Of a stretch of DNA of 64,000 nucleotides, positions 12,912-62,850 are shown piece after piece. Origin of the DNA: Stegostoma tigrinum. Taxonomy: Eukaryota. Under the pieces are notes generated by a model that saw only the letters and a program-made list of their open reading frames with translations, did no database searches and was not told where the DNA came from. The position numbers and the translations under genes were made by a program. The stretch is from NCBI RefSeq assembly GCF_030684315.1, contig NC_081362.1, forward strand, positions 37,943,958 to 38,007,957, in the 5' to 3' direction. How positions within the stretch are numbered: the first letter of the stretch is position 1; the number at the start of each line of letters is the position of its first letter.

Positions 12912-13200
12912 TCTGGACTCAAAATGTTAACTCTGCTTTCTCTCCACAGATACTGCCAGATCTGAAACAAAGTTTCTGGAAAAGTTCAGCAGGTCTGGCA
13001 GCACTTGTTGAGGAGAAAACAAAGTTAACGTTTCGGGTCTGGTTACCGTTCCTCAGAACAAGTTGCTGCCAGACCTGCTGAGCTTTTCCAGCAACTTTGT
13101 TTTTGTTCCTGATTTACAGCATCTGCAGTTCTTTTGATTTTTACTGCCAGATCTGAGTTTCTCTAGAAATTTCTGTTTTAGTTTCAGATCTCCAACAACT
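12912..13200. mobile_element. Palindromic PLE-end insert (family B) nested in a related older element
   Basis: Inverted arms aaagttcagcaggtctggcagca / tgctgccagacctgctgagcttt, with a hammerhead-like core at 13024-13059. Confidence 0.75.
13024..13059 (-). ncRNA. Minimal type I hammerhead ribozyme motif (family B)
   Basis: GUU-CUGAGGA-ACGGUAACCAGACCC-GAAA-CG-UU^AAC. Stem I is GUU/AAC; stem II is weakened by a mismatch. Confidence 0.55.
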
Positions 13201-15552: not shown

Positions 15553-16127
15553 ACAGATTTCTAGTTCAGGTCGCGGATGAGGTCATAGACTTGCTTGCCG
15601 AGCTTGTGTGTTTGACAGCAGACATTTCGTCACTGCACCTCTGGTGAAGCATTGGTGTTCTATCACACCTGTTATTTATCCGCCTCCGTTTGATTGGCAT
15701 TAGTTCTAGTTCCATTTTTCAGTGGTTTGTATATCGGGTCCAGTTCAGCTTGTTTGTTGACAGAGTTCCTATTGGAATACCAGGCCACCAATAAATCTCT
15801 CATGTCTCTGTTTGGCTTGTGCTATATCGACCGGAACAACACATCCATAATAGCACAAGCCAAACTGAGACATACCAAGGGATTCCTGGAGGCCTGGCAT
15901 TCCAACCAGGGCTCCGTCAACAAACACAATGAACTGGACCCCATATACAAACCACCGAGAAAGAACCCTAAGTAATGCCAACCAAAACCAAGGCATATAA
16001 ATAACTGGCAGGACAGAACATTTAACGTTTCACCAGAGGTACACTGACACTGACAATGTCACCCAGCAGGCTGACAACACATCTGCAATCAAGCTCACCG
16101 ACTCGGCAAACAATTCTACAACCTCAT
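15553..16127. mobile_element. Inverted-repeat PLE remnant (Poseidon-like, related to family C)
   Basis: GIY-YIG C-terminal remnant NNTSIIAQAK...FLEAWHS...NKHNELDPIY on the plus arm, with its inverted counterpart on the left. Confidence 0.75.
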
Positions 16128-18667: not shown

Positions 18668-19117
18668 CTGTAAAGTAAAAGAAAATAAAAATTACACTTT
18701 TAAAGATAGCTAAACAAGTTAACCAAATAATTAATAAGGCATACAAGATCTGGTATTTATGAAGGCAGAATTCAAATGATCAGTCTGGAAATACTCGAAA
18801 GTCTGGCACTCTCTATGGTGAAAGAAAGTGTCAGTACTTCAGATTAATAAGTTTCACCACACCTGAAAATTATTAGATATTGAACAGATTTTGGACATAT
18901 TCTGGAGGGAAAAGAGCCAAAGGGAATATCTGTAATGGCATGAGAGAGGTTAAATGACAAAAAGAGATGACGGGTTATTTTAGAATGCCAAACTGCTAGG
19001 AGAAGGAGTTGTCCACTGAAGACATCTCACAGCAGGAAATGGCAAAACACGGTCCATTTAATATGGGAGCTGGATGGACAAGAGGAGGAACAAAGGGAAC
19101 CCAAATCTGGTAATAGA

Positions 19118-19335
19118 AATAATGGGAACTGCAGATGCTGGAGAATCCAAGATAACAAAGTGTGAAGCTGGATGAACACAGCAGGCCAAGCAGCATCTCA
19201 GGAGCACAAAAGCTGACCTTTAGGGCCAAGACCCTTGAATCTCTGATGAAGGGTCTAGACCCGAAACATCAGCTTTTGTGCTCCTGAGATGCTGCTTGGC
19301 CTGCTGTGTTCATCCAGCTTCACACTTTGTTATCT
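19118..19335. mobile_element. Palindromic PLE-derived insert (family A)
   Basis: Near-perfect arms of about 90 bp. The plus-strand core CUGAUGAAGGGUCUAGACCCGAAACAUC is retained. Degenerate TSD tggt(a/t)ataga. Confidence 0.9.
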
Positions 19336-19516
19336 ATGGTTATAGAGGGTTGGAAAGGGACAAGGGTGACAGCATCCAGGATTGGAGTGACCACAATTGA
19401 CGGCTCTGTTAACCATGGCTGAAAATCCACAGCAGAAGAAATGGAAGGACATATCAAAGCTATTGCTACAAGAAGAAGTGGTAGTACTGGCAGAATAGAG
19501 ACAAGCTATTGGGTGA

Positions 19517-19726
19517 GTGATAATGGGAACTGCAGATGCTGGGGAATCCAAGATAATGAAATGTGAAGCTGGATGAACACAGCAGGCCCAGCAGCATCGC
19601 AGGAGCACAAAAGCTGATGCTTCGGGCCTAGACCCTTCATCAGAGGTCTAGACCCAAAACGTCAGTTTTTGTGCTCCTGAGATGTTGCTGGGCCTGCTGT
19701 GTTCATCCAGCCTCACATTTCATTAC
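19517..19726. mobile_element. Palindromic PLE-derived insert (family A) with perfect 15-bp TSD
   Basis: caagctattgggtga at 19502-19516 and 19727-19741. Confidence 0.92.
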
Positions 19727-22259
19727 CAAGCTATTGGGTGAATGGAATAGAACTCTTACAGGAACCAAGATGAAAGGAAACATAACAATGGTCATTGTAT
19801 GAGTTGATAACATTAGTTATTAGAGAACATTAGTTGATAGCCTTTCTAAGGAAACTAAGACGGAAGAGAATTGGAGATAAACAATATACAGGTGAAGGAA
19901 GGGTGGAAATCAGGAGAAAATAAATTTCCTGTCTGGAGCAATAGCAGGTGGTCAGTATATTTTAAGATGAGTTAAGGAATGATATGTGAATAGGGCTGAA
20001 ACAAAGAATTCTGGAAACAGATTCAATGCTAATTATGAGAAGGGAATTTACTAGGTACTTAAACAAGGAAAAAGATTCCAGGAATAAACGGGAAAGACCC
20101 AGGTAGAGGGATTAATGTGGCTGTTATAATAAGATCTGGGCAGACCTGACTGGCTAAATGGTCCCTTTCTGTGCAGTGCTATTCTAAAAGATGAAACAAA
20201 CAAACCAAGAGGGAGTCAAATTTTAAGAAATATAAAGCTGCAGCCTCTGGAGCAGTTGCTGAGGTGTTCCCATGGGAACCAGCGGGCTGAGCTGGAGAAT
20301 TTGAAACTAAAGAAGCTGAAGAATTGCGCCTACAACACCACAGTATTTCACCAATTCTGCATCTGCTTGAGCATTAGCTATGTCAGTAAAATGATTTTTA
20401 CTTTGCTAAATTTGTTAAACTGAATAGCTACAAAGTATTATTTTCCACATTGCATCTTAGCAGTAATTATAAGTCAGTCTTGCCCTCAAATTAAACGAAT
20501 TACCATTTCTCCCCTTAAATACTGATAACAACGTATAATCCAAAATACATTCACTTCTCATTCTTAATGCCAGAAATAATGAACATTATCGTTTTTTTGT
20601 GGTTTTGGAGGAATTTCAACAACTTGTACTTGTAAAATGCCTTTTATTTGGAAAACATCCCCAAGATACTTACTTCACAAGACTAGAATCAGACAAAATC
20701 TGACAGTGATGGCAAATATTGGGAAAATGATCAAAAGCTTGTTCAAAAAAGGTAGCTTTTAAGGAGCATGTTGAAGGAAGAAAATAAAAATGTTTTCAAC
20801 TAGAGCTTGGTGGGAATCTGGAATGCATTGCCTGGGAGGGTAGTGGAAGTAGGAAAACGCATACCCTCTAAAAAGCACTTCAAAACAATGTGGTAGTAGT
20901 ATAGATTTAGAGTTTTTTTTGTAAATGCAGACTCATTGGGCTAAAGGGCTCTTCTGTACTGTATGATTCTACAATAGATGGGTTGGCAAAGGATAATCCA
21001 GTTCTTGGGACCTAATTTAAATTATGATATTGTTACTTTGCAGTACACAAGACACAAATTCCCTTAATTTGCAAAATTTGAATTTAGCCCCGTGATTAGA
21101 ATCATATTCTTGCATATCATAAAATGTTGAGATAATGGAGCTTTTGCCAAAGCAAAACTGGACAATGTCGTCATGATAACTTCCTTCACTGAATTCAGCA
21201 GAATCTATAAATCGGCTAGGCAAGATGTTCCCTTCATTAACGCAAGAGAGGGGCAAACTAGACAGCAGTACAGGTAAATCTTAAAAAATAAATTAAGAGG
21301 GTTAGAAGTCAAGTTTCTTTTCCAACTGGGTGGCATTTCCAAATACAAAGCCATGTTGCGTGCTGTCACATGACCAGATATTGGGCACTAACAGCAAATA
21401 CGTGATCATAAGTGCATGAAATCGGTCTACAGATACAACAACGGACGTCCAATTTGGGATAATATTGAACATAAACCCAAAATTTATGAGACAATGTTGC
21501 TGTAATAATAGAATTAACCTTTTAACAGTGATACAATTAACAGTCTAAACAACTGTAGCTTTACAAAAGCTCTATATAATATTTTCTTAGGACAGAAGCA
21601 TAAACATAAACAAACAGACTAAACATTATATTGCCAAAATCTTTCTTGCCAGACCTCATTACTTGTCAATCTTCATCACAACCACTGACTGAAACATATC
21701 TACTCAAATTACTCCATAGCAGGAATCTTTAATTTTAAAACCTGAGCATTCTGTATCAGTTACTACTAAAGTAGTGTCACCCAACTGCAACAGCACCAAG
21801 TCAGTAGAAGACTATCAGTCTGCCAGTTGGCATGGAGATTAAACATCAAGACTCCAAGCAGGTATGTCATGCACAGAGATTAATAGAAGCTGAGGGATTT
21901 CACAACCTCTCATAATCACTTCAAATTTCCAACATGGAGTAATAATAAAGGTCTTCTGTAGCAAATAGCACTGAAGAATAACTAAGATCAAAAAGCAACT
22001 GAAACAAATATTAACAATAATTATCAACTAGGTTTGGCACAGAAGCTTTGAAAAATTTTGAGTAAGCTTGGAAACCAGTTATGGTACAAAAATTTGAAGT
22101 CATACATTAAATCTTGTAGCTATTAGAATTAAGTATGTTAAAATAAATCCAAAAAGCAATGAAAGTGGGAAGTTTCCTCATGAATTTGCAACCTAAGAGC
22201 ATTTTAAAGAGAAGCACTTCCATGCTAATGTTCCAATGCCTTCTTCACAATTTTATATT

Positions 22260-22560: not shown

Positions 22561-22584
22561 AAACACATCAGCATAGATTATTAG

Positions 22585-22811
22585 AGATAATAGGAAGTGC
22601 AGATGCTGGAGAATCCAAGATAATAAAATGTGAGGCTGGATGAACACAGCAGGCCAAGCAGCATCTCAGGAGCACAAAAGCTGACGTTTCAGGCCTAGAC
22701 CCTTCATCAGAGACCCTCTGATGAAGGGTCTAGGCCCGAAACGTCAGCTTTTGTGCTCTTGAGATGCTGCTTGGCCTGCTGTGTTCATCCAGCCTCACAT
22801 TTTGTTATCTT
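22585..22811. mobile_element. Young palindromic PLE-derived insert (family A) with perfect 15-bp TSD and hammerhead cores on both strands
   Basis: TSD agcatagattattag at 22570-22584 and 22812-22826. The arms are almost perfectly complementary; the left arm has about 30 extra nt. Confidence 0.95.
22716..22747 (+). ncRNA. Minimal type I hammerhead ribozyme motif (family A)
   Basis: CUGAUGA-A-GGGU CUAG GCCC-GAAA-CG-UC^AG. Palindromic ACGU stem III as in dimer-type PLE hammerheads; stem I is only about 2 bp. Confidence 0.7.
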
Positions 22812-23109
22812 AGCATAGATTATTAGTCCAGTAACACTACCACAACATCACTGTCAACTAAGTTACTTCAATCTTGTGTCCAAAGCTGCAATTTTTTTGA
22901 GCCCATTTTCAGTTATATTCTCTTGCAGACTTGATGGCATTGAGTAGATCTTTCATGCTTCACTTTCATATTTTGAAAGCATGCCTTCTGCAAGGATATG
23001 CAAAACTGAATTCATAATTTCCTGTATAAATTAGAAATGAATTGGGTCAATCTACAAAAATCCAATGATTTGCAGCTACTCATCATTCTTAACCAAAAAA
23101 CTGGTGCTC

Positions 23110-23525: not shown

Positions 23526-23805
23526 CTTCAAATTTTGCCTCCTTTATACCTTTGTTTTCTTAGAGCAATTTCCAACTTGAGTATAATTAAATGGCTGTTT
23601 TCAATATACTCGAAGTACCACACTGAGCCAAAAATAGACCAGCAATTCAATGTGGTTCCAAGATAGACTATTCATTAATATAGTTTATAAAAATTCTGAG
23701 GCATTCGTTTGCAGAAATCAACTACAACATTTGAAAAATTAACAAAATTCTACTATTGTAAGCAGTAAGTGTCTCAAGAGTAAATGCAGATCATAAGACA
23801 AGATA

Positions 23806-24126
23806 AAATGGCATAGAGCTGGATGAACACAGCAGGCCAAGCAGCAGGAAAGGTAACACCCCCACCTACACTTGCCTTTACTGGCTCTATCTCTGACTCT
23901 TCGACCTGTCCTCCTCTCCACCTATCTGCTCCTATATCCATCTTCCATCCGCCACCCCCCATCTCTATTTATTTCAGAATCCCCTTCCCCTCCCCCATTT
24001 CTGAAGAAGGGTCCAGACCCCAAATGTCAGCTTTCCTGCTCCTCTGATGCTGCAGGGCCTGCTGTGTAAATCCAGCTCTACACCTTGTTATCTCAGATCC
24101 TGCAAGATCGGCAGTTCTCACTACCT
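23806..24126. mobile_element. Asymmetric PLE-derived insert (family A variant), tail on the right
   Basis: Short inverted arm 23806-23850; main arm has a degenerate core ctgaagaagggtccagaccccaaatgtc. Degenerate TSD cataagacaagata / cattaggcaagata. Confidence 0.8.
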
Positions 24127-31974: not shown

Positions 31975-32890
31975 GGACCTTAGTGTACATGTACATCAGT
32001 CCCTTAAGGTAGTGGGACAGGCAGATAAAATGATTTAAGGTTGCATATGTGAAACTTGCCTTTACTAGCCAAAGCATAGAGTTTAATAGCAGGGAAGTAA
32101 TATTAGAACTGTATAAAACATTGATTGGGCCACAGGTAGAATAGTGCAGTGTTCTGGAATCCACATGACAGAAGGGATGTGATGGCACTGGAGAAGGTAT
32201 AGAGATTTACCAGGATGTTGCCTTGGCTGAAGAGTTATAGTCATGGAGAGAGATTGGATTGACTGCGATAGTAACTGCCAATGCTGGAGAATCTGAGATA
32301 ACACAGTGTGAAGCTGGATGAACACAGTAGGCCAAGCCGCATCAGAGGAGCCGGAAAGTTTGACATTTCAGGTCGAGACCACTCTTCAGAAAAAAATAAA
32401 GAAGGGTATCGACCTGAAACGTCAAACTTTCCTGCTCCTCTGATGCTGCTTGGCCTACTGTGTTCATCCAGCTTCACACCTTGTTAAATTGGGTAGACTG
32501 GGGTTGCTTGCCTTGGAGCAGGAGATCAAGAAAGAACACGATTGAAATATATAAAATTCTGAGGAGTATAAGCAAGAGTAGATGAAAAGAAAACTTTCCA
32601 CTTTGTGGAGGGATCAGTGACTAGGAGACACAAATGTCAGGTAAGGGGCAGGTTTAGAGGGGATGTGAGGAAAAGACTTTTCACCCAGAGACTGATGGGA
32701 ATCTGGAACACTTCGCCTGTACGGGTGGTAGATGTAGAAACCGTGAACATTCAACAAGTATTTTAGATCACCTTTTGCGATGTCAGGGCATACAAAGTTA
32801 ATGGGTCAAGTGCCGGAAATGGGATTAGCATAGTTAGGTAGTTGATTTTGACAGGAGCAGACACGATGGATTGAAGGGTTTTTTCTATGG
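31975..32890 (+). mobile_element. CR1-type LINE 3' part interrupted by a PLE palindrome
   Basis: LELYKTLI.PQVE and RFTRMLP motifs; the sequence resumes after 32488. Confidence 0.8.
32266..32487. mobile_element. Palindromic PLE-derived insert (family A variant)
   Basis: Inverted arms; degenerate TSD attggattgactg / attgggtagactg. Confidence 0.85.
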
Positions 32891-34140: not shown

Positions 34141-35256
34141 TGTATAACAACTGCATTTATATAAGCAATAACCATTCTCGATAACAGAGCTGCTACTTTC
34201 CAGTACATTTTATTTCTGCAAATGGTTTTACATACACATTTTTACAGGTTTCAGAATATTGAAGAGAATTACTTAAACAGGAGAAAAGTAGTCAAATGTT
34301 GAACATATAGGAACCAGCTCAGATGCAGTTTTGATGAAGTTATTGTAGAAAGGTGAACCAGAATCTCCAATAATTTTTGTTTTAAAATTATCCTGCTTCC
34401 AGCATTGTTTTTTTTAAGTTCCAATTAAAATGAAATGCTTAATTTGAAAAAAGCTTTTCCGGATGTGCTAAAGCTTCATGCTAAAGTCTCTCCGGCGTTC
34501 CATGACATGTCCGCCATAAACCTGGTTTTGTCAGTAGTTCTCTGCAGTTTCTGGTCAACCTTTATATACCCTTTCGTAAAGTTGTTGATATGAAGCCTGG
34601 CACAACTTTATGATCAGTATATACAGAATTAAAGAACACAGGCCTCCAGAGATATGTGTTTCACCAAGAATACCCAGGCAAGAAAATTACCTGCAGTGCC
34701 ATGGAATAATTAGATTAGTTCTTTGAAATCATTCTTTGTTGCTAATGCTGCAAATTCAACATCTTATCGTCAACTAGCTTCATCTTAAGTTGAGATGAAG
34801 TTAACGCTCAGGTTCTAAAACTCTCCAAATTTATTGGGGAAAATGAGGAGATCTGCATTATTATATCAATTAACAGAGAACATTTCTGTTTGCTAAAACC
34901 GTCTTATTAATTCTTTAGTCTGCAGTCATCTTAATTGTACTACTCAATTACAAGGTTACGTGATCATTTATGAACTTTTTTTTCCTTCAGTACGAACAGT
35001 TCAAGCTCTTGATCTCAAAGGTTGGCCTTAGACCTCCAGCAGGTACTAACTAATCATGCAACCTCAAAATTACTTTACTGCAGAAGTCCCTTGATAAAAA
35101 CAAGTCTCCAAACAACTCAATGGTTCTATCGAAAGACAGAGGCTTCATTATGAACCAAATGAGTTAGTCACTCCACTAATTTCAAACGAGACGAAAGCTG
35201 TACATAGTTCTCCAGATGTAGTTTCACCAGGGCCTTGCACAGTTGCTGAGAAACAT

Positions 35257-36460
35257 GAGATGATGGGAACTGCAGATGCTAGAGAATCCAAGATAACAAA
35301 GTGTGGAGCTGGATGAACACAGCAGGCCAAGCAGCATCTTAGGAGCACAAAAGCTGGCGTTTCAGGCATAGCCCCTTCATCAGAGAGGGGGATGGGGAGA
35401 GGGTTCTGAAACAAATAGCGGGGGGGAGAGAGGCGGACCAAAGATGGATAGAGAAGATAGGTGGAGAGGAGAGCATAGGTGGGCAGGTAGGGAGGGGATA
35501 GGTCAGTCCGGGGAGGACAGACAGGTCAAGGGGGCGGGATGAGGTTAGTAGGTAGGAAATGGAGGTGCGGTTTGAGGTGGGAGGAGATCGGTGAGAGGGA
35601 GAACAGGTTAGGGAGGCGGGGATGAGCTGGGCTGGTTTTGAGATGCGGTGGGGGAGGACAGATTTTGAAGCTTGTGAAGTCCACATTGATACCATTGGGC
35701 TGCAGGGTTCCCAAGCGGAATATGAGTGTTGCTGGCAATGTAGTATATTGCATCCACTGTACCCGCTGTGGCTTCCTCTACATTGGGGAAACCAAGCGGA
35801 GGCTTGGGGACTGCTTTGCAGAACACCACCACTCAGTTCGCAATAAACAACTGTACCATTTTAACTACCCCTCCCATTCCTTAGACGACATGTCCATCGT
35901 GCGTCTCCTGCAGTGCCACAATGGTGCCACCCGAAGGTTACAGTCACAGCAACTCCTATTCAGCTTGGGAACCCTGCAGTCCAATGGTAACTACGTGGAC
36001 TTCACAAGCTTCAAAATCTCCCCTCCCCCAACTGCATCCCAAAACCAGCCCAGCTCGTCCCCTCCCCCGGCTGCATCCCAAAACCAGCCCAGCTCGTCCC
36101 CTCCCCCCACTGCATCCCAAAACCAGCCCAGCTCATCCCTGCCTCCCTAACTTGTTCTTCCTTTCACCTGTCCCCTCCTCCCACCTCAAGCCACACCTCC
36201 ATTTCCTATCTACTAACCTCATCCTGCCCCCTTGAACTGTCCATCCTCCCCGGACTGACCTATCCCCTCCCTACCTGCCCACCTATACTCTCCTCTCCAT
36301 CTATCTTCTCCTCTATCCATCTTCGGTCTGCTTCCCCCCCTCTCCCTAGTTATTTCAGAACCCTCTCCGAAGGAGGATCTAGGCCCGAAATGTCAGCTTT
36401 TGAGCTCCTAAGATGCTGTTTGGTCTGCTGTATTCATCCAGCTCCACACTTTGTTATCTT
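35257..36460. mobile_element. 1.2-kb inverted-repeat Penelope-like (Neptune-type) insert with GIY-YIG remnant in the loop
   Basis: NVVYCIHCTRCGFLYIGETKRRL..F.EH; arms of about 450 bp; TSD tgc(t/a)gagaaacat at 35244-35256 and 36462-36474. Confidence 0.93.
36022..36140 (+). repeat. 39-bp minisatellite x3 within the PLE 3' region
   Basis: ctgcatcccaaaaccagcccagctcgtcccctccccc repeats; similar array at 55280-55390. Confidence 0.9.
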
Positions 36461-37219
36461 ATGCAGAGAAACATCCCTACTTTTATGATCTAATATCCTT
36501 CCAATAAATGCCAACATTCCTCTGGCCTTTGTAACTGCATACTAACTTTGTGTGATTCAGGTACCAGGACACAGAAATCGCTCTATCATCAAGTTAAAGT
36601 CATATCAGAGTCATAAAGGTCTGCAGCACAAAGGCTCATTATGTCCACTCCAGTCAAAACCACAATAAAGCAATTCTGATCCCACTTTCCACCAGTTAGG
36701 CCATAGCCTTGCATGCCTTGGCGTCGCAGGCACTCACCAGAATATTTATCAAATCTTGAGGATTTTTGCCTCTACAAGTCTGGGTGAAAAAATTCTCTTC
36801 ACATCTATTGTTTTTCTAACCATCCTACCAGAGTGAAAAAGTTCATATTTTACCACATCATGTTTAATCTTCCAATCTTTTGCCTACTTAGTTAACCAAT
36901 CTATTTTTCTTGTAAGCGCTTTACCTCATTACGGGAAATTACCTGTTTCTTAAATCAAAATCACCAATGTGCTGTTAATGGCTGGCTGAGCCAGCGACAC
37001 CCAGATGATATGAACGAGTGTTAAAATAAAAACCTGAGCACTGTCTATCCATGAGACTCCACTAGCTACAGATTGCCAACTCAAAAACAATATCGTCAGC
37101 TAGTCAATCATTTATGCACCCACACCCCCAACCCAAAATGTTCCCTTATTTTGAATAGTGACCTTTGATATAGCACCTTATCAAAGGCTCCATGAAAACT
37201 TAATTAGAATACATCTAGA

Positions 37220-40261: not shown

Positions 40262-40858
40262 TAAAGTTTTGGAGTAGATCTGTAGCTCGGGTTGTGGGTG
40301 TTGAGGTTTGTTGGCTCGCCGAGCTGGTTTGTTGTTCCGCAGACGTTTCGTTACCATGCTTGGTAATGACCTCAGTGCAGCCTCTGATGAAGCCTCGGTG
40401 TGTTTTCCCGCCTGGTTTTTAAACTCTGGGGTCCATTACAATGGATTGCCTCACTTCCTGGTTTCCTCCGTAGTGGAATGTATATGGGACTGAGTTCAAT
40501 GTGTTTATTACTAGCATGCTTCATGGAGTGCCATGCTTCCAGGAATTCCCATGCTTGTCTCCGCGTAGCCTGTCCCAGGATCTTGGTGTTGTCCCAGGCG
40601 AAGTTGTGGTTCTCCTTGTCCATGTGGATTGAGATGAAGCATACTATTAATAAACATATTGAACTCGGCCCCATGTATATTCCACCACGGAGGAAACCCG
40701 GAAGTGAGGTAATCCATCGCAACGGACACCAGAATTTAAAAACCAGGTGGGAAAATACACCGACGCTTCATCAATGGCGGCACTGAGGACGTTACCAAGC
40801 ACGGTAACGAAACGTCTGCAAAACAACAAACCAGCTCGGCGAGCAAACCAACATCAAC
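40262..40858. mobile_element. Palindromic PLE insert of about 600 bp (family C, Poseidon-like)
   Basis: Arms of about 220 bp flank a loop encoding HNFAWDNTKILGQA...EFLEAWHS...NKHIEL (GIY-YIG C-terminus); both arms carry hammerhead cores. Confidence 0.9.
40780..40819 (+). ncRNA. Minimal type I hammerhead ribozyme motif (family C), best-formed copy in the window
   Basis: GCA-CUGAGGA-C-GUUACC AAGCAC GGUAAC-GAAA-CG-UC^UGC: 3-bp stem I, perfect 6-bp stem II, GUC site at 40814-40816. Confidence 0.8.
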
Positions 40859-42227
40859 ATCTTCTATTTGCTTTCCATAAAACTGAAATTTTCCAAAACT
40901 CCACTGCCCATGCCTTAACTTGCAGCAAGTTCTAGTACCCTATTATACATTTATATTGGCTCCTGTTCATGCAAAACATTGATTTTAAAGCTAAAACAGA
41001 AATTGCTGGAAAATTGCTTGTAATCTTGTCTGGCCCTACTGCATTCCAAGGTATGTATGCCCCTGTAATTCTGGCCTCTTGAGTACTCTCAATTTTTGTG
41101 GCTTCACCACTGGTGGCCATGGTTTCAGTTTTTGATCATTTGATTCAACATCTCGTCTCATATTTAGTTTAATAATGCTCTTTAGAAGCACCTTGGGAAG
41201 CTGCATTACATTAAAAGAGACTTCACAGAATTGCTGGATAAGAAATAATAAGAATAAATCAATTAAGTAATTTGCAATGAATGAGGATTATTATTTTGTA
41301 TGTCAGTGCCCCATAATAGATTCCAGGTTGTTAGGGTCAGCAGGTTGGAGGAGTGGGGAGGTGGGTGTAAGGGATCAAGGGAAGTGTAGTTTTGGATGGT
41401 ATGTGGTAGTTTGGGCACCAGTTTAACAGTTACACTAGGTTTAAGATAACTACTAGGCAACTACTAATTTTGAGAAGTGGAACCATACAAATTCTCTGCT
41501 TTTAATGAATTTGAGAGATTCAGATGCAGGGAAATTATCCACTGGAATCTTAATTTCCCAGGCAATTGACATGGAGTCCATACTTGGAATTCCAAAGTAT
41601 AATAACTCCAGTCTGTGCTGTTCCAATGATTACCTGAGTAACTGAGTACATGGGCCAAAATCTCTTCCAAATGATTAATTGTCATGAAAATGAAGACTAA
41701 CAATCAACTTTTATAACTAAAATGAACACCTTAGGAGTCTTTCATAGCTTGTTTATTTTTCTAAAACTATTCACAGCATTACAGAGGTGTTAGAATGTTG
41801 TGTCTCCAACTTGTAGGTACAGCACGCTTCATTGAATGGTGAGATAGCTTCATGCACAGATTATTGTGCATATACTGATCCAGATATTGTGGGACATTGC
41901 TTGATGTCACTGATTTTGCGTCATTGGCTGGTGATGTTGATTATGTTGTTTTGTTCAGTGGTGTTGCTGCTGTCAACAATCTCTTCCAGCTCAGGTGTAG
42001 GTCGCATCTGGGCTCTGTTCCTTCTCATTTGCTTACCAGTTTCAGTCTCAATGGTGCACCATTTTTAGTGGGTTCCCGATTTTCTTGACTAGCTCCTGCA
42101 AATGTATACAATGTCCTTTCGATAGCTTAGGCAAGCATTTAGCACGTCCGTTGATGTGCTGACCTGTATCTGAGAGACATGGTCTTACTTTCTGCTGGTC
42201 ACTTGGAGCAAGCAACTTGTTAGCAGA

Positions 42228-42440
42228 GATAGTAGGAACTGCAGAGGCTAGAGAATCTGAGATAACATGGTGTAGAGCCGGATGAACACAACAGGCCAAG
42301 CAGCATTAGAGGAGTAGGGAAGCTGACGTTTTGGGTCTAGACCCTTCTTCATTAAAAGGGTCAAGACCCAAAACATCAGCTTTCCTGTTCCTCTGATGCT
42401 GCTTGGCCTGCTGTGCTCATCCAGCTCTACATAGTGTTAC
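42228..42440. mobile_element. Palindromic PLE-derived insert (family A variant) with perfect 12-bp TSD
   Basis: cttgttagcaga at 42216-42227 and 42441-42452. Confidence 0.9.
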
Positions 42441-42949
42441 CTTGTTAGCAGAATTGTCTTATACATTCTACTGTTTATGCATCACAGGTGATTTCATATC
42501 AACCTTGACAGATTTGGATCAAATTGATGAGAAGGTGACGGTTGTGGTTCTCTTGTATAGTATCAGCAGGATGATACTCTATGGTAAGGTAAGGTAAGGT
42601 TTCAGTGCCCCCTCTCCTCTGGTCATGCAAACAAACTCTATTTCATTATGTATCAAGAGACAGTAAAACAAAAGAATATAAAAAGGTTCTTGAGTACATT
42701 TGTGGAACCAACCAAACACAGCAAAAGAATATAAACAATGAATCTGTTCATTAACCCATAGTTAGATTACAGTGCGCATTTCTGAATACCACCATTATAG
42801 GAAATCTATAAAAATAGAGAAGATCTAAATAGTCAGAACTTGAGTACGGTTGAAAAAAAATGACAATTTGTTCAAGTTTTTCATTTTGCATCATTCGGAC
42901 ATTTCACAAGAATACCATCTCAAGGGAAAACCAAAATTTGTACTGCTTG

Positions 42950-47650: not shown

Positions 47651-48109
47651 AACTGTCCTAATTTTGGTCCAAGCCCTTTGATATTGATGATTTGGATTCT
47701 CTATGGTTGGGCAGCACTGTTTTTGACAATGTAATTTCCAATGCCTAGATCAATACTGGGTGGCCCATACAGTTTAATTCTTTTGTCACATAGTTCACAA
47801 CTGAACGACCTCCGGGCCAGATCAGAAACAGTTAAGAATCATCTATGTGTCTTTGGGTGTGGAGTCACACGTCAGTCAGACATGGAAAGGATGACAGATA
47901 TCTAAAAGAACTGGCTAAGGAATGTGTGAACAAGTTTTAAATCTCACAAGGGACGCAAAATCCTTTTTTTGATCACCTGCTTGCTCAACATGCATTTATG
48001 GGGCTTAATGAGAATACTCATGGTTCAGCATTCCCTGCACCGCTTCTATCTGAAGAATAATGTCATGACCGTTGGAGCAAATTAAGCAAACAATGAACCT
48101 AACTCCAAT

Positions 48110-48235
48110 AAAAACCAAATGAACTGTGGACGCTGTAAAGCAAAACAAAGTTGCTGGGAAAGCTCAGCAGGTCTGGCAGCATCTGTGAAGGAAAAAACAG
48201 CGTTAACATTTTGGGTCCAGTGACCCTTCTTCAAA
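48110..48235 (-). mobile_element. PLE-end fragment (family B), single arm, degenerate hammerhead
   Basis: Matches 13066-13140 in reverse; gttaacattttgggtccagtgacccttcttca core remnant. Confidence 0.7.
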
Positions 48236-48469
48236 TCTAACTCCAACATGAGTTCTCACCTCAGCAATGTTAAGTTTCACCATGGCAAAGATAAAGAAGG
48301 AAAAATAAACATCAGAAATCTGGGCAAGTAGAAGAGAATCTGTGCTTAATTTTTCCTACATGTTATTTGTCTTCTATTTCTTTTGATTGTTAAACATCTT
48401 CCAGTCTTCAAATGCAAGACAAGCAAATGCATTTTGCTGTAGAATAACTCAGCAAGTACTTCATATTAG

Positions 48470-51070
48470 TTTTCACAGTGGAAGACACCAGCAGCATACC
48501 AGAACTTCAAGACAGTCAAGGCACAGAGGTGAGTGTAGTGGCCATCAACAAGGAGAAGGTGCCAGGGAAGCAAAAAGGTCTGAATATGGATAAATTACCT
48601 GGAACGGATGGAGTACACCCCACTGTTCTGAAGGAGATTATGGAGGCTTTGGTGGAGATCTTTCAGGAATCACTGGAGTCAGGAAGAGTAAAAGAAAACT
48701 GTAAAATGAGTAACAAAACTCCCCTATTAAAGAAGGAAAGCAGAAGACAGGAAATTTATAGACCAGTTAGCCTGCCCTCCACCATTACTAAGATTGTAGA
48801 ATCCATTATTAAGCCTGAGATTGTGGAGTGCTTGGTAGGGCACAGTATAACGGCTGAGTCATCTCAGCTCCATCAAGGGGAAATCATGCCTGACAAATCT
48901 GTTACAATCCTTTGAGGAGGTAACGAGCAAGTCAAACAAACGAAAGCCAGTGGATGTGATCTATTTGGATTTTGAGAAGGCCTTTAACAAGTTGCCACAA
49001 AGGAGACTGCTAAATAAACTGTCCTAACAGCTTATTAGGAGTTAGCTCCTGTTAGGAGCAAGGTGCAGGCATGGATAGAGGTTTAGCTGACTGGCAGAAG
49101 GCAGAGAAAAGGGATAAAGTGTTACTTTTCAGGATGGCAGTAAGTGACAAATGGAGTTCCAAACAGGTCAGTGTTGGGACCACAACTATTCACGTTATAC
49201 ATTAATGGTCTGGACAAAGAAAGAGGGGATTGTTACAAAGTTTACAAATGACACAAAGATATGCAGAAGTACAGGTAGTGTTGAGGGAGCCAGGAGGCTC
49301 CAGAAGGACTTCAACAGGCTACAAGAGTGGGCAAAGATGAGGCTGACGGAATACAATGTGGGAAAGTGTGAGGTTATGTACTTTGATAAGAAGAGGAGGA
49401 AGAACCGGGGCTGGACTTCAGAAATCTGAAGCACAAAGGGACTTGGGAATCCTCACGCAACACTCGCTTAAGCTTAACATGTAGGTTCAGCAATCAGGAA
49501 GGCAAATGCAGTGTTAGCATTCCTTTCAAGAGAACTAAAAGCAAAGATGCACTGCTGAAGCTGTAAAAGGCTCTGGTCAGACTGTATTTGGAACAGTGCA
49601 AACAGTTTTGGGCCCTGTATTTAAGGATGGACACAATGGCCTTGGGAGGGGTCCAGAGAAAATTTACAAGAATGATTCCAGGGATGAAGAGTATGTCATG
49701 TGAGGAGAGTTTGAGGGCTTAGAATCTGATTACAGAAAGTAAGCATGGCTTTGTGCACGGGAAATTATGTCTCACCAACTTGATTTGAGTCTTTTTTTTG
49801 AAAAGACTACCAAGAAACTTGATGAAGCCAGAGCAGTAGACCTTGTCTATATGGACTTCAGCAGACTGTTCCACAAGGTTCCACATGGTAGACCGATTAG
49901 TAAGGTTAGGTAACATGGGACCCTGGGGGATTAGCCGAATGGATACAAAGTTGGCTTGAAGGTAGGAGACAGAGGGTGGTGGTGGAGGGTTGTTTCTTGG
50001 ACTGGAGGCCGATGACCAGTACGTGCCCCAAGGATCAGTGATGAATTCACTGCCGTTTGACATTTATACAAGTTATTTGGAAGCAAATGTAGGAGGTATG
50101 GTTAATAAAACGGCAGATGATGCCAAAATTAGTGGAGTAATGGATAGTGAAGATTATCTCAGATTACAACAGGGCCATGATCAGTGGGGCAAATGGGCTG
50201 AGTGACAAATGGAATTTAATTTAGATACAGTGAGGTGTTGTATTTCAGTGAGACAAACCAGAACAGGATTTATATAATGACAGGGCCCTGGGGAGTGTTG
50301 CTAAACAGAGACTTAGGGGTAGTAAGAACTGCTGATGCTGGAGTGTGAGATAACAAGGTGTGGAGGTAGATGAACACAGCAAGCCTGGCAGCATCAGAGG
50401 AGCAGGAAAGCTTACGTATTAGGTCTGGAGACCTACAGGTGCCTTGAAAGTGGAGTCACAGGTAAACAAGGGTGGTGATTAAGGTTGGTACCCCTGCCTT
50501 CATTGGTCAGAACGCTGATAATAGGAGTTGGGATGTCATGTGCAGTTGTACAGGCCAGTGGTGAGGCCACTTTTGGAATACAGCATACAATCTGGTCATT
50601 CTTCTATAGGAGAGATGTGGTTATGCTTGAGAAGGTGCAAACAACATTTACAAGGATGTTGTTGGGATTGGAGGGTTTCAGCTATAGGAAGAGACTGACT
50701 ATGGTGGGGCATTTCTGTCCTTGGAGCTTTACAGACTGAGTGGTGACCTTAAAGGTTTATAAAATCATAACAGACATGGATAGAGTGAATAGCCAACGTC
50801 CTTTTCCGAGGGTCTTGAGGGCACAGATTTAAGGTAAGACGGATAAGATTTAAAAGGGACCTGAGGGGCAATCTTTTCATGCAGAGGATGGTGCGTGTGT
50901 GGAACAAGCTGCCAGAGGAAGTGATGGAGGCTAGTACAATTACAACATTTAAAAACCATCTGGGTGGATATGGGCCAAATACAGGCAATGGGGGCAAAGT
51001 CAGATTTGGGTGTCTGGTTGGTGCAAATGAGTTGGACCGAAGGGTCTGTTTCTGTGCTGTATGACTGTAT
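48470..51070 (+). mobile_element. Two tandem 5'-truncated CR1/HER1 LINEs (about 48470-49720 and 49720-51070)
   Basis: PGTDGVHP.VLKE, YRPVSL.S, VPQGSV, KTADDAK and WNKLPEEV motifs. Confidence 0.88.
50321..50428 (-). mobile_element. Single-arm family A PLE end inserted in CR1
   Basis: gtaagaactgctgatgctggag...gatgaacacagc matches the family A tail. Confidence 0.75.
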
Positions 51071-54000: not shown

Positions 54001-54880
54001 AATGCTCTAATCGATTGAACCTTACAAAAACAGCTTGGAAATTGTAGTATGATCAGATGGCATCAACATGCTTTTATTAAAGTGAAATTGTGGATGGCAA
54101 ATTTATTGGAGATTTCTAAGGATGCAGAAAGGGAAACCAGTGCATGCCTACACTTGCCAAAATAATTCGATAAAGTACTATGTTAAAGGATAATATGCAA
54201 GATGAGGATTCAAGGAGGATAATACTTCAGCTTTGATGGAGGATCATTAAAGAGGCAGGAAAAACGATAGAGATAAACAAGATGTTTTCAAGTTGGCAGA
54301 CTAACTTGTGAGCACTACAAAAATCATTGCTAAAACTACAATGACTTACAAAATAACGCATACTAATAAGTCTGATGAACAGACCAAGAATAATGCATCC
54401 AAATTTGTTGGTGATATAAAGCTAACTAGGGAGATAAGTTGTTAGGAAAACTCAAAAGGTTGAAAAGAGGTCAAAAAAGGTCAATTCAAGAAGCAACATG
54501 ACGACACATGGAGAAATGTGAAGTAAACTCAAATCCAAATTTAAAACGCATAAAACTTTTACATGTTGCAATTCAGAGAGCCTTGGGCACATTTGTACAA
54601 GGAACAGAACATTAACATGCAGGCATATCAATCAATTGAAAGGGGAAATATCACAGCAATCTTTATTGCAAGAGGACTGGAATAAAAGAATGAACAACTC
54701 TTACTACATCGCAAGGGCCTTCGATGGGACCACACAGAGTGTTTAATGAGGACTTAATATGTGTCTTGGAGGTGATGGGTAAAAGTTCACCCGATTGGTT
54801 TCAGGAAAGAAAGGGTTATCCCATGATGAGAGGTTGAACAAGTGTCATTTGTACTCTTTGGAGAAAAAAGGTAATCTAAT
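51100..54880 (+). mobile_element. Highly decayed CR1-type LINE fragments (51100-52000 and 53100-54880)
   Basis: Residual RT motifs, e.g. tccaaatttgttggtgata (SKFVGD). Confidence 0.5.
53661..53970 (+). mobile_element. HE1 SINE, full length
   Basis: A box tagcacagtga, canonical B box ggttcgattcc, and tail ccacactgtaggg. Confidence 0.92.
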
Positions 54881-54904
54881 TAAAACGTCCTGGCTTCTGA
54901 ATGA

Positions 54905-57240
54905 CTGATAATGGGAACTGCAGGTGCTGGAGAATCCGAGATAATAAAATGTGAGGCTGGATGAACACAGCAGGCCAAGCAGCATCTCAGGAGCACAAAA
55001 GCTGACGTTTCGGGCCTAGACCCTTCATCAGAGAGGGGGATGGGGTGAGGGATCTGGAATAAATAAGGAGGGGGGGAGGCGGACCGAAGATGGAGAGAAA
55101 AGAAGATAGGTGGAGAGGAGAGCATAGGTGGGGAGGTGGGGAGGGGATAGGTCAGTCCAGGGAAGACGGACAGGTCAAGGAGGTGGGATGAGGTTAGTAG
55201 GCAGGAGATGGAGGTGCGGCTTGGGGTGGGAAAAAGGGATGGGTGAGAGGAAGAACAGGTTAGGGAGGCAGAGACAGGCTGGACTGGTTTTGGGATGCAG
55301 TGGGTGGAGGGGAAGAGCTGGGCTGGTTGTGTGGTGCAGTGCGGGGAGGGGACGAACTGGGCTGGTTTTGGGATGAGGTGGGGGAAGGGGAGATTTTGAA
55401 GTTGGTGAAGTCCACATTGATACCATATGGCTGCAGGGTTCCCAAGCGGAATATGAGTTGCTGTTCCTGCAACCTTTGGGTGGCATCACTGTGTCACTGC
55501 AGGAGGCCCATGATGGACATGTCATCTAAAGAATGGGAGGGGGAGTGGAGATGGTTTGCGACTGGGAGGTGCAGTTGTTTATTGCGAACTGAGCGGAGGT
55601 GTTCTGCAAAGCCGTTCCCAAGCCTCCGCTTGGTTTCCCCAAAGTAGAGCAAGCCACACCGGGTACAATGGATACAGTATACCATATTGGCAGATGTGCA
55701 GGTGAACATATGCTTAATATGGAAAGTCATCTTGGGGCCTGGGATAGGGGTGAGGGAGGTGGCGTGGGGGCAAGTGTAGCATTTCCTGCGGTTGCAGGGG
55801 AAGGTGCTGGGTGTGGTGGGGTTGGAGGGCAGTGTGGAGCGAACAAGGGAGTCACGGAGAGAGTGGTCTCTCCGGAAAGCAGACAAGGGTGGGGATAGAA
55901 AAATGTCTTGGGTGGTGGGGTCGGATTGTAGATGGCAGAAGTGTCGGAGGATGATGCGTTGTATCCGGAGGTTGGTGGGGTGGTGTGTGAGAACGAGGGG
56001 GATCCTCTTTGGGCGGTTGTGGCGGGGGTGGGGTGTGAGCGATGTGTTGCGGGAAATGCGGGAGACGCGGTCAAGGGCGTTCTAGATCACTGTGGGGGGG
56101 GCAAGTTGTGGTCCTTGAAGAACTTGGACATCCGGGGATGTGCGGCAGTGGAATGCCTCATCCTGGGAGCAGATGCGGCGGAGGCGGAGAATTGGGAATA
56201 GGAGATGGAATTTTTGCAGGAGGGTGGGTGGGAGGTGGTGTATTCTAGGTAGCTGTGGGAGTCGGTGGGCTTGAAATGGACATCAGTTACAAGCTGGTTG
56301 TCTGAGATGGAGACAGAGTTCCAAGAAGGTGAAGGATGTGCTGGAGATGGCCCAGGTGAACTGAAGGTTGGGGTGGAAGGTGTTGGTGAAGTGGATGAAC
56401 TGTTCGAGCCCCTCTGGGGAGCAAGAGGCGGCGCCGATACAGTCATCAACGTAACAGAGGAAGAGATGGCGTTTGGGGCCTGTATAGGTGCGGAAGAGGG
56501 ACTGTTCCATGTAACCTACAAAGAGGCAGGCATAGCTGGGGCCCATGCGGGTGCCCATGGCCACTCCCTTAGTCTGTAGGAAGTGGGAGGAATCGAAAGA
56601 GAAGTTGTTGAGGGTGAGGACGAGTTCGGCTAGGCGGATGAGGTGTCGGTGGAGGGGACTGGTCGGGCCTATGGGACAGGAAGAAGCGGAGGGCCTTGAG
56701 GCCATCTGCATGCGGAATACAGGTGAATAGGGACTGGACGTCCATGGTGAAAATGAGGTGTTGGGGGCCAGGGAATTGGAAGTCCTGGAGGAGGTGGAGG
56801 GCGTGTGTGGTGTCACGGACGTAGGTAGGGAGTTCCTGGACCAAAGGGGAGAAAATGGAGTCCAGATAGGTGGAGATGAGTTCGGTGGGGCAAGAACAGG
56901 CTGAGACAATGGGTCGACCAAGGCAGGCAGGTTTGTGGATTTTGGGAAGGAGATAGAAACGGGCCGTGCAGGGTTGGGGAACAATGAGGTTGGAGGCTGC
57001 GGGTGGGAGGTCCCCTGAGGTGATGAGGTCATGAATGGTGTTGGAGATGATGGTTTGGTGCTCGGGGGTGGGGTCATGATCGAGGGGGCGGTAGGAGGTG
57101 GTGTCGGAGAGTTGGCGTTTGGCCTCGGCGATTGTACCCGGTGTGGCTTCCTCTACATTGGGGAAATCAAGCGGAGGCTTGGGGACTGCTTTGCAGAACA
57201 CCTCCGCGTCACAAACCATTTCCACTCCCCCTCCCATTCT
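54905..57240 (-). mobile_element. Penelope-like retroelement (Neptune-type), 5'-truncated, RT plus Cys linker plus GIY-YIG, frameshifted
   Basis: FYLLPKIHK..GRPIVS, TMDVQSLFT.IP, QTKGVAMG..MGPSYA, YVDD, HFKPTD, CNRRKCYTC, VYCIHC..C...YFGETKR.L...EH and LGTLQPYGIN. An inverted GIY-YIG piece sits at 57132-57238. Confidence 0.95.
55002..55033 (-). ncRNA. Intact minimal hammerhead motif at the PLE 3' end (host-sense strand)
   Basis: CU-CUGAUGA-A-GGGUCUAGGCCC-GAAA-CG-UC^AG; predicted cut between 55004 and 55003. Confidence 0.72.
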
Positions 57241-60025: not shown

Positions 60026-61560
60026 TAGTGGCTGAGGAAATAGCAGAGGCTTTGGTTGTGATCTTTCAAAAGTCACTGGAGTCAGGTCAAGTTCCTGATG
60101 ATTGGAAAATCGCTGTTGTAACCCCCTTGTTTAAGAAAGCATCAAGGCAAAAGATGGAAAATTATAGACTGATTAGCCTAACCTCGGTTGTTGGTGAAAT
60201 TCTTGAACCACTGTCATGGATGGGATTTCTAAATTCCTGGAAGTGCTGGGTCAGATTAGAACAAGTCAGCATGGATTTAGTAAGGGGAGGTTGTGCCTGA
60301 CAAACCTGTTAGAATTCTTTGAAGAGGTAACAAATATGTTAGACCAGGGAAACTCAGTAGATGTTATATATCTAGACTTCCAAAAGGCCTTTGATATGGT
60401 GCCTCATGGGAGGCTACCGAGCAAGGTGAGGGCCGATGGTGTTCGAGGTGAGCTACTGGCTTGGACTGAGGATTGGCTGTCTGACAGAAGGCAGAGAGTT
60501 GGGATAAAAGGCTCTTTTTTGGAATGGCAACCGGTGACGAGTAGTGTCCCGCCGGGTTCAGTGTTGGGGCCACAGCTGTTCACCTTGTATATTAATGATC
60601 TGGATGAAGGGACTGGGGGCATTCTGGCGAAGTTTACCGAAGATACGGAGATAGGTGGACAGGCAGGTAGTACTGAGGAGGTAGGGAAGCTGCAGAAAGA
60701 TTTAGACAGTTTAGGAGAATGGTCCAGGAAATGGCTGATGAAATTCAACGTGAGCAAATATGAGGCTTTGCACTTTGGAAAAAAGAATACAGGCATGGAC
60801 TATTTTCTAAATGGTGAGGAAATTCGCAAAGCCAAAGTATAAAGGGATCTGGGAGTGTTGGTCCAGGATTCTCTAAAAGTTAACTTGCAGGTAGAGTCCG
60901 TGATTAAGAAAGCGAATGTAATGTTGTCGTTTATCTCAAGAGGGTTGGAATATAAAAGCAGCGATATGCTTCTGAGACTTTATAAAGCTCTAGTTAGGCC
61001 CCATTTAGAATACTGTGTCCAATTTTGAGCCCTACACCTCAGGAAGGACATACTAGCCCTGGAGCGTGTCCAGCGGAGATTCACATGGATGATCCCTGGA
61101 ATGGTAGGTTTAACGTACGATGAACGGCTAAGGGTCCTGGGGTTGTACTCATTAGAGTTTAGAAGGTTGAAGGGAGATCTAATAGAAACTTACAAGATAA
61201 TGTATGGCTTAGAAGGGGTGGACGCTGGGAAGTTGTTTCCGTTAGGCAGGGAGACTAGGACCCGTGGGCACAGCCTTAAAATTAGAGGGTGTAAATTTAA
61301 AACGGAAATGAGACAACATTTCTTCAGCCAGAGAGTGGTGGGTTTGTGGAATTCATTGCCATGGAGTGCAGTGGAGGCCGGGACATTAGATGCCTTCAAG
61401 GCAGAGAGCGACAAATTCTTGATCTCATAAGGAATCAAGGGCCATGGGGAGAGTGCAGGGAAGTGGAGTTGAAATGCCCATCAACCACGATTTAAATGGC
61501 GAAGTAGATGTGACGGGCTGAATGGCCTTACTTCCACTCCTATGTCTTATGGTCTTATGT
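60026..61560 (+). mobile_element. Young 5'-truncated CR1/HER1 LINE
   Basis: Long ORF pieces QHGF.KGRLCLTNLLEFF, YLDFQKAFD.VPH, GSVLGPQLF..YINDL, LGLYSLEFRRLKGDLI; ttatggtcttatg tail. Confidence 0.95.
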
Positions 61561-62727: not shown

Positions 62728-62850
62728 ACAAAGAACTGCAGATGTTGGAAATCCGGAACAAAAACAGAAAGTACTGGAGAAACTCAGGTCTGGTGGCACG
62801 TGTGGAGAGAAAGCAGAACAAATATTTCAATCTAGTGACCCCTCTAGTCC
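62728..62850 (-). mobile_element. PLE-end fragment (family B-related)
   Basis: aaagaactgcagatgttggaaatc...gagaaactcaggtctgg. Confidence 0.6.

Follow-up and report, generated by a model that had tools for sequence, protein, structure and literature searches.

Short head-to-head palindromes in a shark genome: probable minimal insertion products of a Penelope-like element with a sharp limit at the hammerhead edge

Six short palindromes in a 64-kb stretch of Stegostoma tigrinum DNA (the window, 64,000 nucleotides in all) consist of the last 111–129 nt of a Penelope-like element (PLE), two copies of which are fused head to head at their 5′ ends. We are nearly certain that they are products of PLE inverted-end insertion, and there is good reason to think that each was built anew. 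Our preferred overall reading, which we consider probable, is that they represent the short extreme of ordinary insertion by a Neptune-type PLE that bears an endonuclease, made afresh each time. The arms stop at a sharp limit beside the hammerhead, and on balance we lean toward this limit being the 5′ end of the RNA. The general architecture is already published: according to the portions of PMC8557442 and PMC3846280 on which we draw, a standard PLE insertion carries an inverted 5′-truncated copy, a tail of 30–40 nt and a TSD. Short arms with a sharp limit at the hammerhead edge are a variant of this architecture.

Results

The insert at 22585–22811 has the following layout.

22570–22584, plus strand: left TSD, 15 bp, perfect (22570/22812)
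22585–22616, minus strand: PLE tail of 32 nt, on one arm only, unpaired in the fold; matches 54907–54938
22585–22713, minus strand: long arm, the last 128 nt of the PLE, 96% identical to 54907–55034
22683–22710, minus strand: minimal hammerhead motif, left arm
22713–22715, no strand: apex, the head-to-head joint, with about 2 bases fitting neither arm
22716–22811, plus strand: short arm, sense, beginning 2 nt before the core and ending at the inner tail boundary; identity to the PLE 98%
22718–22745, plus strand: minimal hammerhead motif, right arm
22812–22826, plus strand: right TSD, 15 bp, perfect

Its paired arms (22617–22712 and 22716–22811) are 96 nt each and 97% complementary around a 3-nt loop, and the predicted fold has z = −25.7, with none of 200 shuffles equally stable. 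Five sister palindromes share this architecture.

1911–2113, no strand: older subfamily; TSD of 14 bp with 1 mismatch (1911/2100); short arm without ~60 nt
19108–19346, no strand: young subfamily; TSD of 10 bp with 1 mismatch (19108/19337)
19502–19741, no strand: young subfamily; perfect TSD of 15 bp (19502/19727)
32253–32500, no strand: older subfamily; TSD of 13 bp with 2 mismatches (32253/32488); private variants common to both arms
42216–42452, no strand: older subfamily; perfect TSD of 12 bp (42216/42441)

The palindromes, located at 1925, 19118, 19517, 22585, 32266 and 42228, are ~190–230 bp each, and in all six an inverted 5′-truncated copy adjoins its partner head to head. Compared with the 3′ terminus of the 54907 PLE, arm identity is 96–98% for 22585 and 80–95% for the other five. 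By local alignment the longer arm ends 121–128 nt from the PLE 3′ end in every copy, never beyond ~129, and the partner arm ends 111–127 nt from it. One arm exceeds the other by a tail of 32–35 nt in five of six copies, the short arm at 1925 being the one without ~60 nt. TSD length varies between 10 and 15 bp in all six palindromes; among 2000 random position pairs, a TSD of at least 10 bp with at most 1 mismatch arose by chance 4 times and a 13-bp TSD with at most 2 mismatches twice. These results bear out the original prediction of six head-to-head inserts derived from a PLE 3′ end, each at its predicted position, with ~30 nt of extra tail on one arm and TSDs of 10–15 bp that are perfect at 19517, 22585 and 42228. 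The two young palindromes within 19108–19741 lie ~155 bp apart in the same orientation.

MITEs are short, non-coding elements of DNA-transposon origin, with terminal inverted repeats that reach both ends and a TSD of fixed, short length. The shark inserts are likewise short and non-coding, with inverted ends and a TSD, whereas their arms are a retroelement 3′ end, one arm carries an unpaired tail and the TSD spans 10–15 bp. With an asymmetric tail, a variable TSD and a PLE origin, they fall outside the MITE class, as anticipated when they were first described as MITE-like but retro-derived. Such palindromes are open to mis-annotation as MITEs or SINEs.

A BLAST search returned ten insertions of the parent PLE family within the window. 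The six palindromes form the short end of a length series, with four further copies at 23801, 35258 and 54907 (longer arms) and 50320 (solo); the same inverted layout recurs with arms of 214, 790 and ~2200 nt.

54907–57240, minus strand: parent-type PLE, 5′-truncated and frameshifted
23801–24126, no strand: same architecture, flipped, tailed arm of 214 nt, older subfamily; TSD uncertain
35244–36474, no strand: same architecture, arms of ~610 and ~790 nt reaching into the endonuclease region; TSD of 13 bp with 1 mismatch
50318–50428, minus strand: solo tailed arm, older subfamily, ending inside the hammerhead

The parent copy at 54907–57240 contains an RT remnant, a CX4CxxC linker, a GIY-YIG-like endonuclease, a C-rich 3′ UTR of ~200 nt, a hammerhead and the tail. 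Its RT remnant matches RVT_1 at E=6e-4, under the Pfam cut-off, and this broken copy has no direct Pfam GIY-YIG match; its endonuclease region resembles GIY-YIG clusters (0.96–0.97 by features) and matches shark proteins at 83–89%, the closest of 12 proteins found being from zebra shark (89%) and whale shark (83%). Two relatives (P0009 and P0012) combine RVT_1 above the cut-off with a weak GIY-YIG match. The family of 54907–57240 has the layout of an EN+ PLE, an RT followed by a C-terminal GIY-YIG endonuclease in one ORF. A PDB sequence search with the RT frame gave one irrelevant match (E=0.96). The parent translation contains CNRRKCYTC and VYCIHCTRCGLLYFGE. In the published descriptions available to us in part, a CX2-5CxxC linker before GIY-YIG, together with two Cys inside the GIY-YIG core, marks the Neptune and Nematis clades; the parent PLE has such a linker and such cysteines, and from these motifs we infer a Neptune rather than a Nematis type. 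The parent ORF ends ~200 nt before the hammerhead at 55031–55004.

Several further features of these elements were apparent. The 5′ end of the long copy (57131–57240) is capped by an inverted internal fragment of the endonuclease region with a deletion, rather than by a pLTR arm, and no clear TSD accompanies this cap. On the minus strand of 54907–54984, a frame that starts at an ATG in the arm runs without a stop across the tail, in young as well as old copies; the ORF may begin there, within the pLTR. At 55230–55391 and 36019–36139 a ~35-nt repeat, present two to three times depending on the element, encodes a C-terminal extension rich in Pro and Ser that follows the endonuclease. Remnants of LINE-type ORFs, not related to the PLE, lie at 60207–60842 (RVT_1 E=5e-15) and 48448–48915 (no Pfam match). 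Pattern scans for further copies gave 0 in metagenome contigs, viral contigs and prokaryote genomes.

The window holds other PLE families as well. A second family, with copies at 12965 and 48109, ends at the equivalent position with respect to its hammerhead, and two other PLE palindromes (40299 and 15629) run well past theirs. The second-family copy at 12951–13156 is a palindromic stump with a perfect 15-bp TSD, one arm of which ends 3 nt past the core, and it sits inside a still older PLE end. Second-family solo stumps at 48099–48246 (10-bp TSD at 48099/48237) and 62730–62845 end at or inside the hammerhead. The PLE-like inverted pairs at 40270–40862 and 15570–16110 have longer arms, with AT-rich TATA-like boxes 48 and ~54 nt before their cores; the hammerhead at 40783 has a stem II of 6 bp.

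Three features define the region in which the short copies end.

55004–55031, minus strand: parent hammerhead; predicted cut between 55004 and 55003, placed by the motif given in part of PMC4209133
55032–55035, minus strand: boundary at which the short copies stop sharply on their 5′ side; candidate 5′ end of the RNA
55058–55065, minus strand: TATA-like AT island TATTTATT of putative function, 34 nt before the core

A relaxed minimal-hammerhead descriptor matched eight times in the window, seven of them inside PLE copies, against a shuffle mean of 1.05 (n=20), in agreement with the earlier claim that the inserts carry a minimal hammerhead; Rfam at gathering score gave 0 matches. In the right-arm motif at 22718–22745, stem II has 4 bp, a palindromic ACGU replaces stem III and stem I is only ~2 bp. 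The core boxes, stem II and the palindromic stem III remnant are those of a minimal type I hammerhead. Stem II is 92% paired across 18 arms, with covariation not above shuffles. In the predicted RNA fold the core is sequestered by pairing with the cut-site strand. The hammerhead is a candidate for self-cleavage, as a dimer or with protein. Core boxes, a single base before a G-C-opened stem II and the palindromic replacement of stem III are shared with the minimal PLE hammerheads described in part of Cervera and de la Pena 2014 (PMC4209133), although a 4-bp stem II and a ~2-bp stem I are shorter than in most of these. The same portion of that work reports dual Schistosoma motifs on opposite strands 100–700 bp apart, compared with ~10 nt between the paired motifs of the shark palindromes.

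The boundary lies 1–4 nt upstream of the hammerhead CUGA core and ~30 nt from the predicted cut. In seven of the ten family insertions the longest arm ends inside a 19-nt span. Simulated truncation with a mean of 100 nt gave P = 0.0014 for this clustering, and longer means gave lower values; the end of the copy at 1925 was taken as 127 by eye and 121 by alignment, both inside the span. The edge is one-sided, with a hard upper limit at ~128–129 and spread toward shorter lengths only. Apexes were therefore not distributed uniformly along the element, an outcome that the original prediction had named as telling. Its placement of the apex at or just 5′ of the hammerhead core holds in that the limit is 5′ of the CUGAUGA core, with the refinement that it is not at the cleavage site.

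We mapped contigs of four out of 23 public runs (X1, X5, X6 and X10) on 54843–56762, noting that contig assembly may collapse hairpins and hide fold-back joints. Run X1, which may be the source of the window itself, contributed 387,108 mapped contigs, with some of its events left uncounted. Among the six X1 loose ends listed (24 over all runs, with 3950 more), the only three leading into long unrelated flank were at 54907 (563 contigs), 54939 (741) and 55032 (732). Of these, 54907 and 54939 correspond to the tail ends, and 55032 is the boundary joined to flank without a mirror arm. Since 732 contigs join the boundary directly to unrelated sequence, neither fold-back nor template switching is needed to set the limit. 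Among the loose ends listed for the other runs, X6 had a small one at 55036 (4 contigs) and X5 and X10 had none at the boundary. A step in contig depth at 55034 was rejected as a measure of copy number because older subfamilies align better over the conserved end and later bins of X10 regain similar levels.

The older copy at 23801 retains the AT island, at −35; in the two arms of 35258 it is degenerate. Only two TATA-like sites occur in the 2224 nt of sense strand, one of them at −34 from the core. The box, noticed after the fact, has one mismatch in seven to what we take to be the consensus, and we treat the island as a lead toward a pLTR promoter box. For D. virilis Penelope, partial published accounts give a TATA-less internal promoter with the start 46 nt before a 75-nt intron whose end is at helix I; this RNA start lies well upstream of the hammerhead.

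We also asked whether the palindrome behaves as a propagating unit. All six apex junctions are unique, with bases fitting neither arm at 22585, 19118, 32266 and 42228. Mean arm identity is 90% within a copy, compared with 82% for left-left, 84% for right-right and 83% for cross comparisons, and subfamily and private variants are common to both arms of a copy. Among the variable columns listed, none was side-specific or mini-specific. Of the 18 aligned arms, 17 went into a tree (the deleted left arm of 23801 was omitted), which has two supported subfamily groups, each with long copies, left arms and right arms; left, right and long labels did not cluster on it, 500 of 500 shuffles being as low. 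The shared internal junction and unit-specific variants of a SINE-like unit were absent from the six copies. Nor do they have the co-oriented, head-to-tail hammerheads of a retrozyme: their two motifs lie on opposite strands and point outward. The proposal of a SINE- or retrozyme-like unit fares poorly here, as every junction is unique, the very outcome it had named against itself, and side-specific variants are missing. Judged from six copies in one window and a partial view of contigs, the inserts are probably not a propagating palindromic unit.

The best-supported X1 joints, among the 15 listed, run tail to tail on opposite strands between 54906–54907 and 54939–54941 (21+33+22 = 76 contigs), precisely linking the full tail end with the short end. 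The 64-kb window has no tail-to-tail joint or tandem unit. No head-to-head apex joint was among the 15 joints listed (of which there are 560 more, and in which hairpins may be collapsed). The tail-to-tail joints fit insertion at the tail boundary of an older copy, self-priming of RNA, or tandem or circular palindromic units.

Discussion

Based on these observations, we propose that the PLE protein would nick both target strands 10–15 nt apart, the spacing seen here as TSDs; part of PMC11167929 demonstrates two-strand nicking in vitro for an anole PLE. RT would then be primed internally, at two RNA sites separated by ~32 nt, each serving one strand. The copies have two fixed 3′ ends ~32 nt apart, which, carried over from the anole system, could be these start sites; the in vitro two-strand evidence comes from the Poseidon clade and not from a Neptune-type PLE. 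The cDNA would run through the uncut hammerhead and end 1–4 nt beyond it, where the template RNA would begin; this is probably where transcription starts in the pLTR, ~30 nt behind the TATA-like box. With the boundary ~30 nt 5′ of the cut, the template would not be the cleavage product and RT would have passed through the fold. Finally, a head-to-head joint would form between the two cDNA ends, presumably by end-joining and with loss or gain of a few bases; the ragged, unique junctions of the six palindromes are consistent with such a step. Extension of only one strand would leave a solo stump, and stumps, which are without the upstream box, are probably dead ends. Unique junctions and matched arms could alternatively come from tip deletion and gene conversion in palindromes after insertion, and with as few as six copies these processes could blur the signature of a master.

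The limit itself might be set by the sequence of a longer template, with RT falling off at the end of the CUGAUG/CGUCAG hairpin, where the C-rich tract begins (G-rich in cDNA), and joining then proceeding as above. The 5′ base of the predicted hairpin is indeed the first core nucleotide, 1–4 nt from the boundary, composition changes abruptly there and some copies read through. The hairpin, however, folds no more stably than shuffles (z about 0), and the edge is one-sided rather than spread. Moreover, RT reads RNA 3′ to 5′, so a stop at the template fold should fall on its 3′ side, ~30 nt earlier. We regard such a stop as rather unlikely. The earlier suggestion of an RT stop at the ribozyme fold followed by a template switch is not supported, as the longer arms reach into or past the CUGA core in all six palindromes and 732 contigs run directly into flank. 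We rejected a G-quadruplex stop at the boundary, finding no four-tract G-run motif before 55223. The mirror arm could instead arise at the boundary by self-priming on antisense RNA or by fold-back of cDNA; antisense self-priming has been proposed for head-to-head PLE junctions in rotifers (part of PMC3846280), the arms within a copy match closely, and the junction at 19502–19741 (the 19517 insert), the only one roughly compatible with fold-back or microhomology, roughly fits a fold-back via a 5-bp stem. Against this, fold-back should leave overlapping arms, one shorter by the stem and loop, whereas the two arms of 22585 extend as far as the boundary and are separated by extra bases, and unmatched apex bases recur at 19118, 32266 and 42228. 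An antisense AATAAA at 55058 would also place the RNA end beyond 55070 and not at 55032, and the in vitro template was sense RNA in the portion of PMC11167929 on which we draw, so that self-priming appears improbable. That the template was the 3′ cleavage product of the hammerhead is largely refuted for the six copies and hardly credible: 11 of 12 arms extend 18–31 nt 5′ of the cut by alignment (the shortest 14 nt) and so include sequence absent from that product, stem I is only ~2 bp, and cleavage was dispensable in vitro (part of PMC11167929). One contig joint, among those listed, links 55003 to 54935 exactly at the predicted cut (depth 129) and is possibly a rare cleavage-derived insertion.

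The palindrome, or several masters, might instead spread as a non-autonomous unit, perhaps by way of tandem or circular intermediates, with junctions diverging after insertion. Uniform size, six copies in 64 kb and published precedent for non-autonomous PLE derivatives (in the accounts available in part) speak for it, and the precise tail-to-tail joints, an expected product of palindromic units in tandem or circular form, keep it alive through their 76 X1 contigs. It has to contend with six unique junctions among six copies, the lack of side-specific or mini-specific variants, the missing apex joint among the 15 listed, solo stumps that have the same boundary, and the absence of tandem units and tail-to-tail joints from the window; a 96-bp hairpin RNA would also be a poor template. 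We give this model little credence. It is also conceivable, though unlikely, that the 128-nt module headed by the hammerhead serves as a separate short template, transcribed from the 3′ pLTR of longer copies, that a dimeric PLE protein inserts two cDNAs of it, one per strand, and that some palindromes are re-mobilised through circular or tandem intermediates. If true, the stumps would map where PLE RNAs start and by what chemistry PLEs integrate, and re-mobilisation would explain the tail-to-tail joints.

Our preferred reading, ordinary insertion by a Neptune-type PLE, places the inserts close to known systems. With the EN+ PLE insertions described in parts of Arkhipova 2013 (PMC3846280) and Craig 2021 (PMC8557442), they share a head-to-head copy, a one-end tail of 30–40 nt, a TSD of ~8–15 bp and a pLTR hammerhead; they differ in having both arms at ~120 nt, a sharp limit at the hammerhead edge, which those parts of the two papers do not describe, and no ORF. 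For the anole Poseidon element PAc (Frangieh 2024, PMC11167929, in part), two internal RT starts bound the tail, product length follows the template's 5′ end and cleavage is not needed. Common to both systems are RT starts bounding the tail ~110–150 nt from the hammerhead, nicking and extension of both strands, and an uncut RNA, but the shark PLE belongs to a different clade and has the CX4CxxC linker, and neither mini-palindromes nor a fixed 5′ limit are reported for PAc in that portion of the work. Non-LTR retrozymes (bioRxiv 10.64898/2026.07.22.740005, in part) are also short, non-coding, PLE pLTR-derived and equipped with a type I hammerhead; they form head-to-tail tandems with two co-oriented ribozymes, whereas the shark inserts are head-to-head, flanked by TSDs and not bounded by the cut site. 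No title or abstract opening returned by searches of open-licence literature describes hammerhead-edge mini-palindromes in sharks.

Part of PMC8557442 concedes that the way in which PLEs come by their inverted ends and tails is unsolved. If the boundary is the RNA start, the abundant stumps would be an in vivo read-out that matches the two-strand, internal-start reaction observed in vitro, and would point to a testable promoter.
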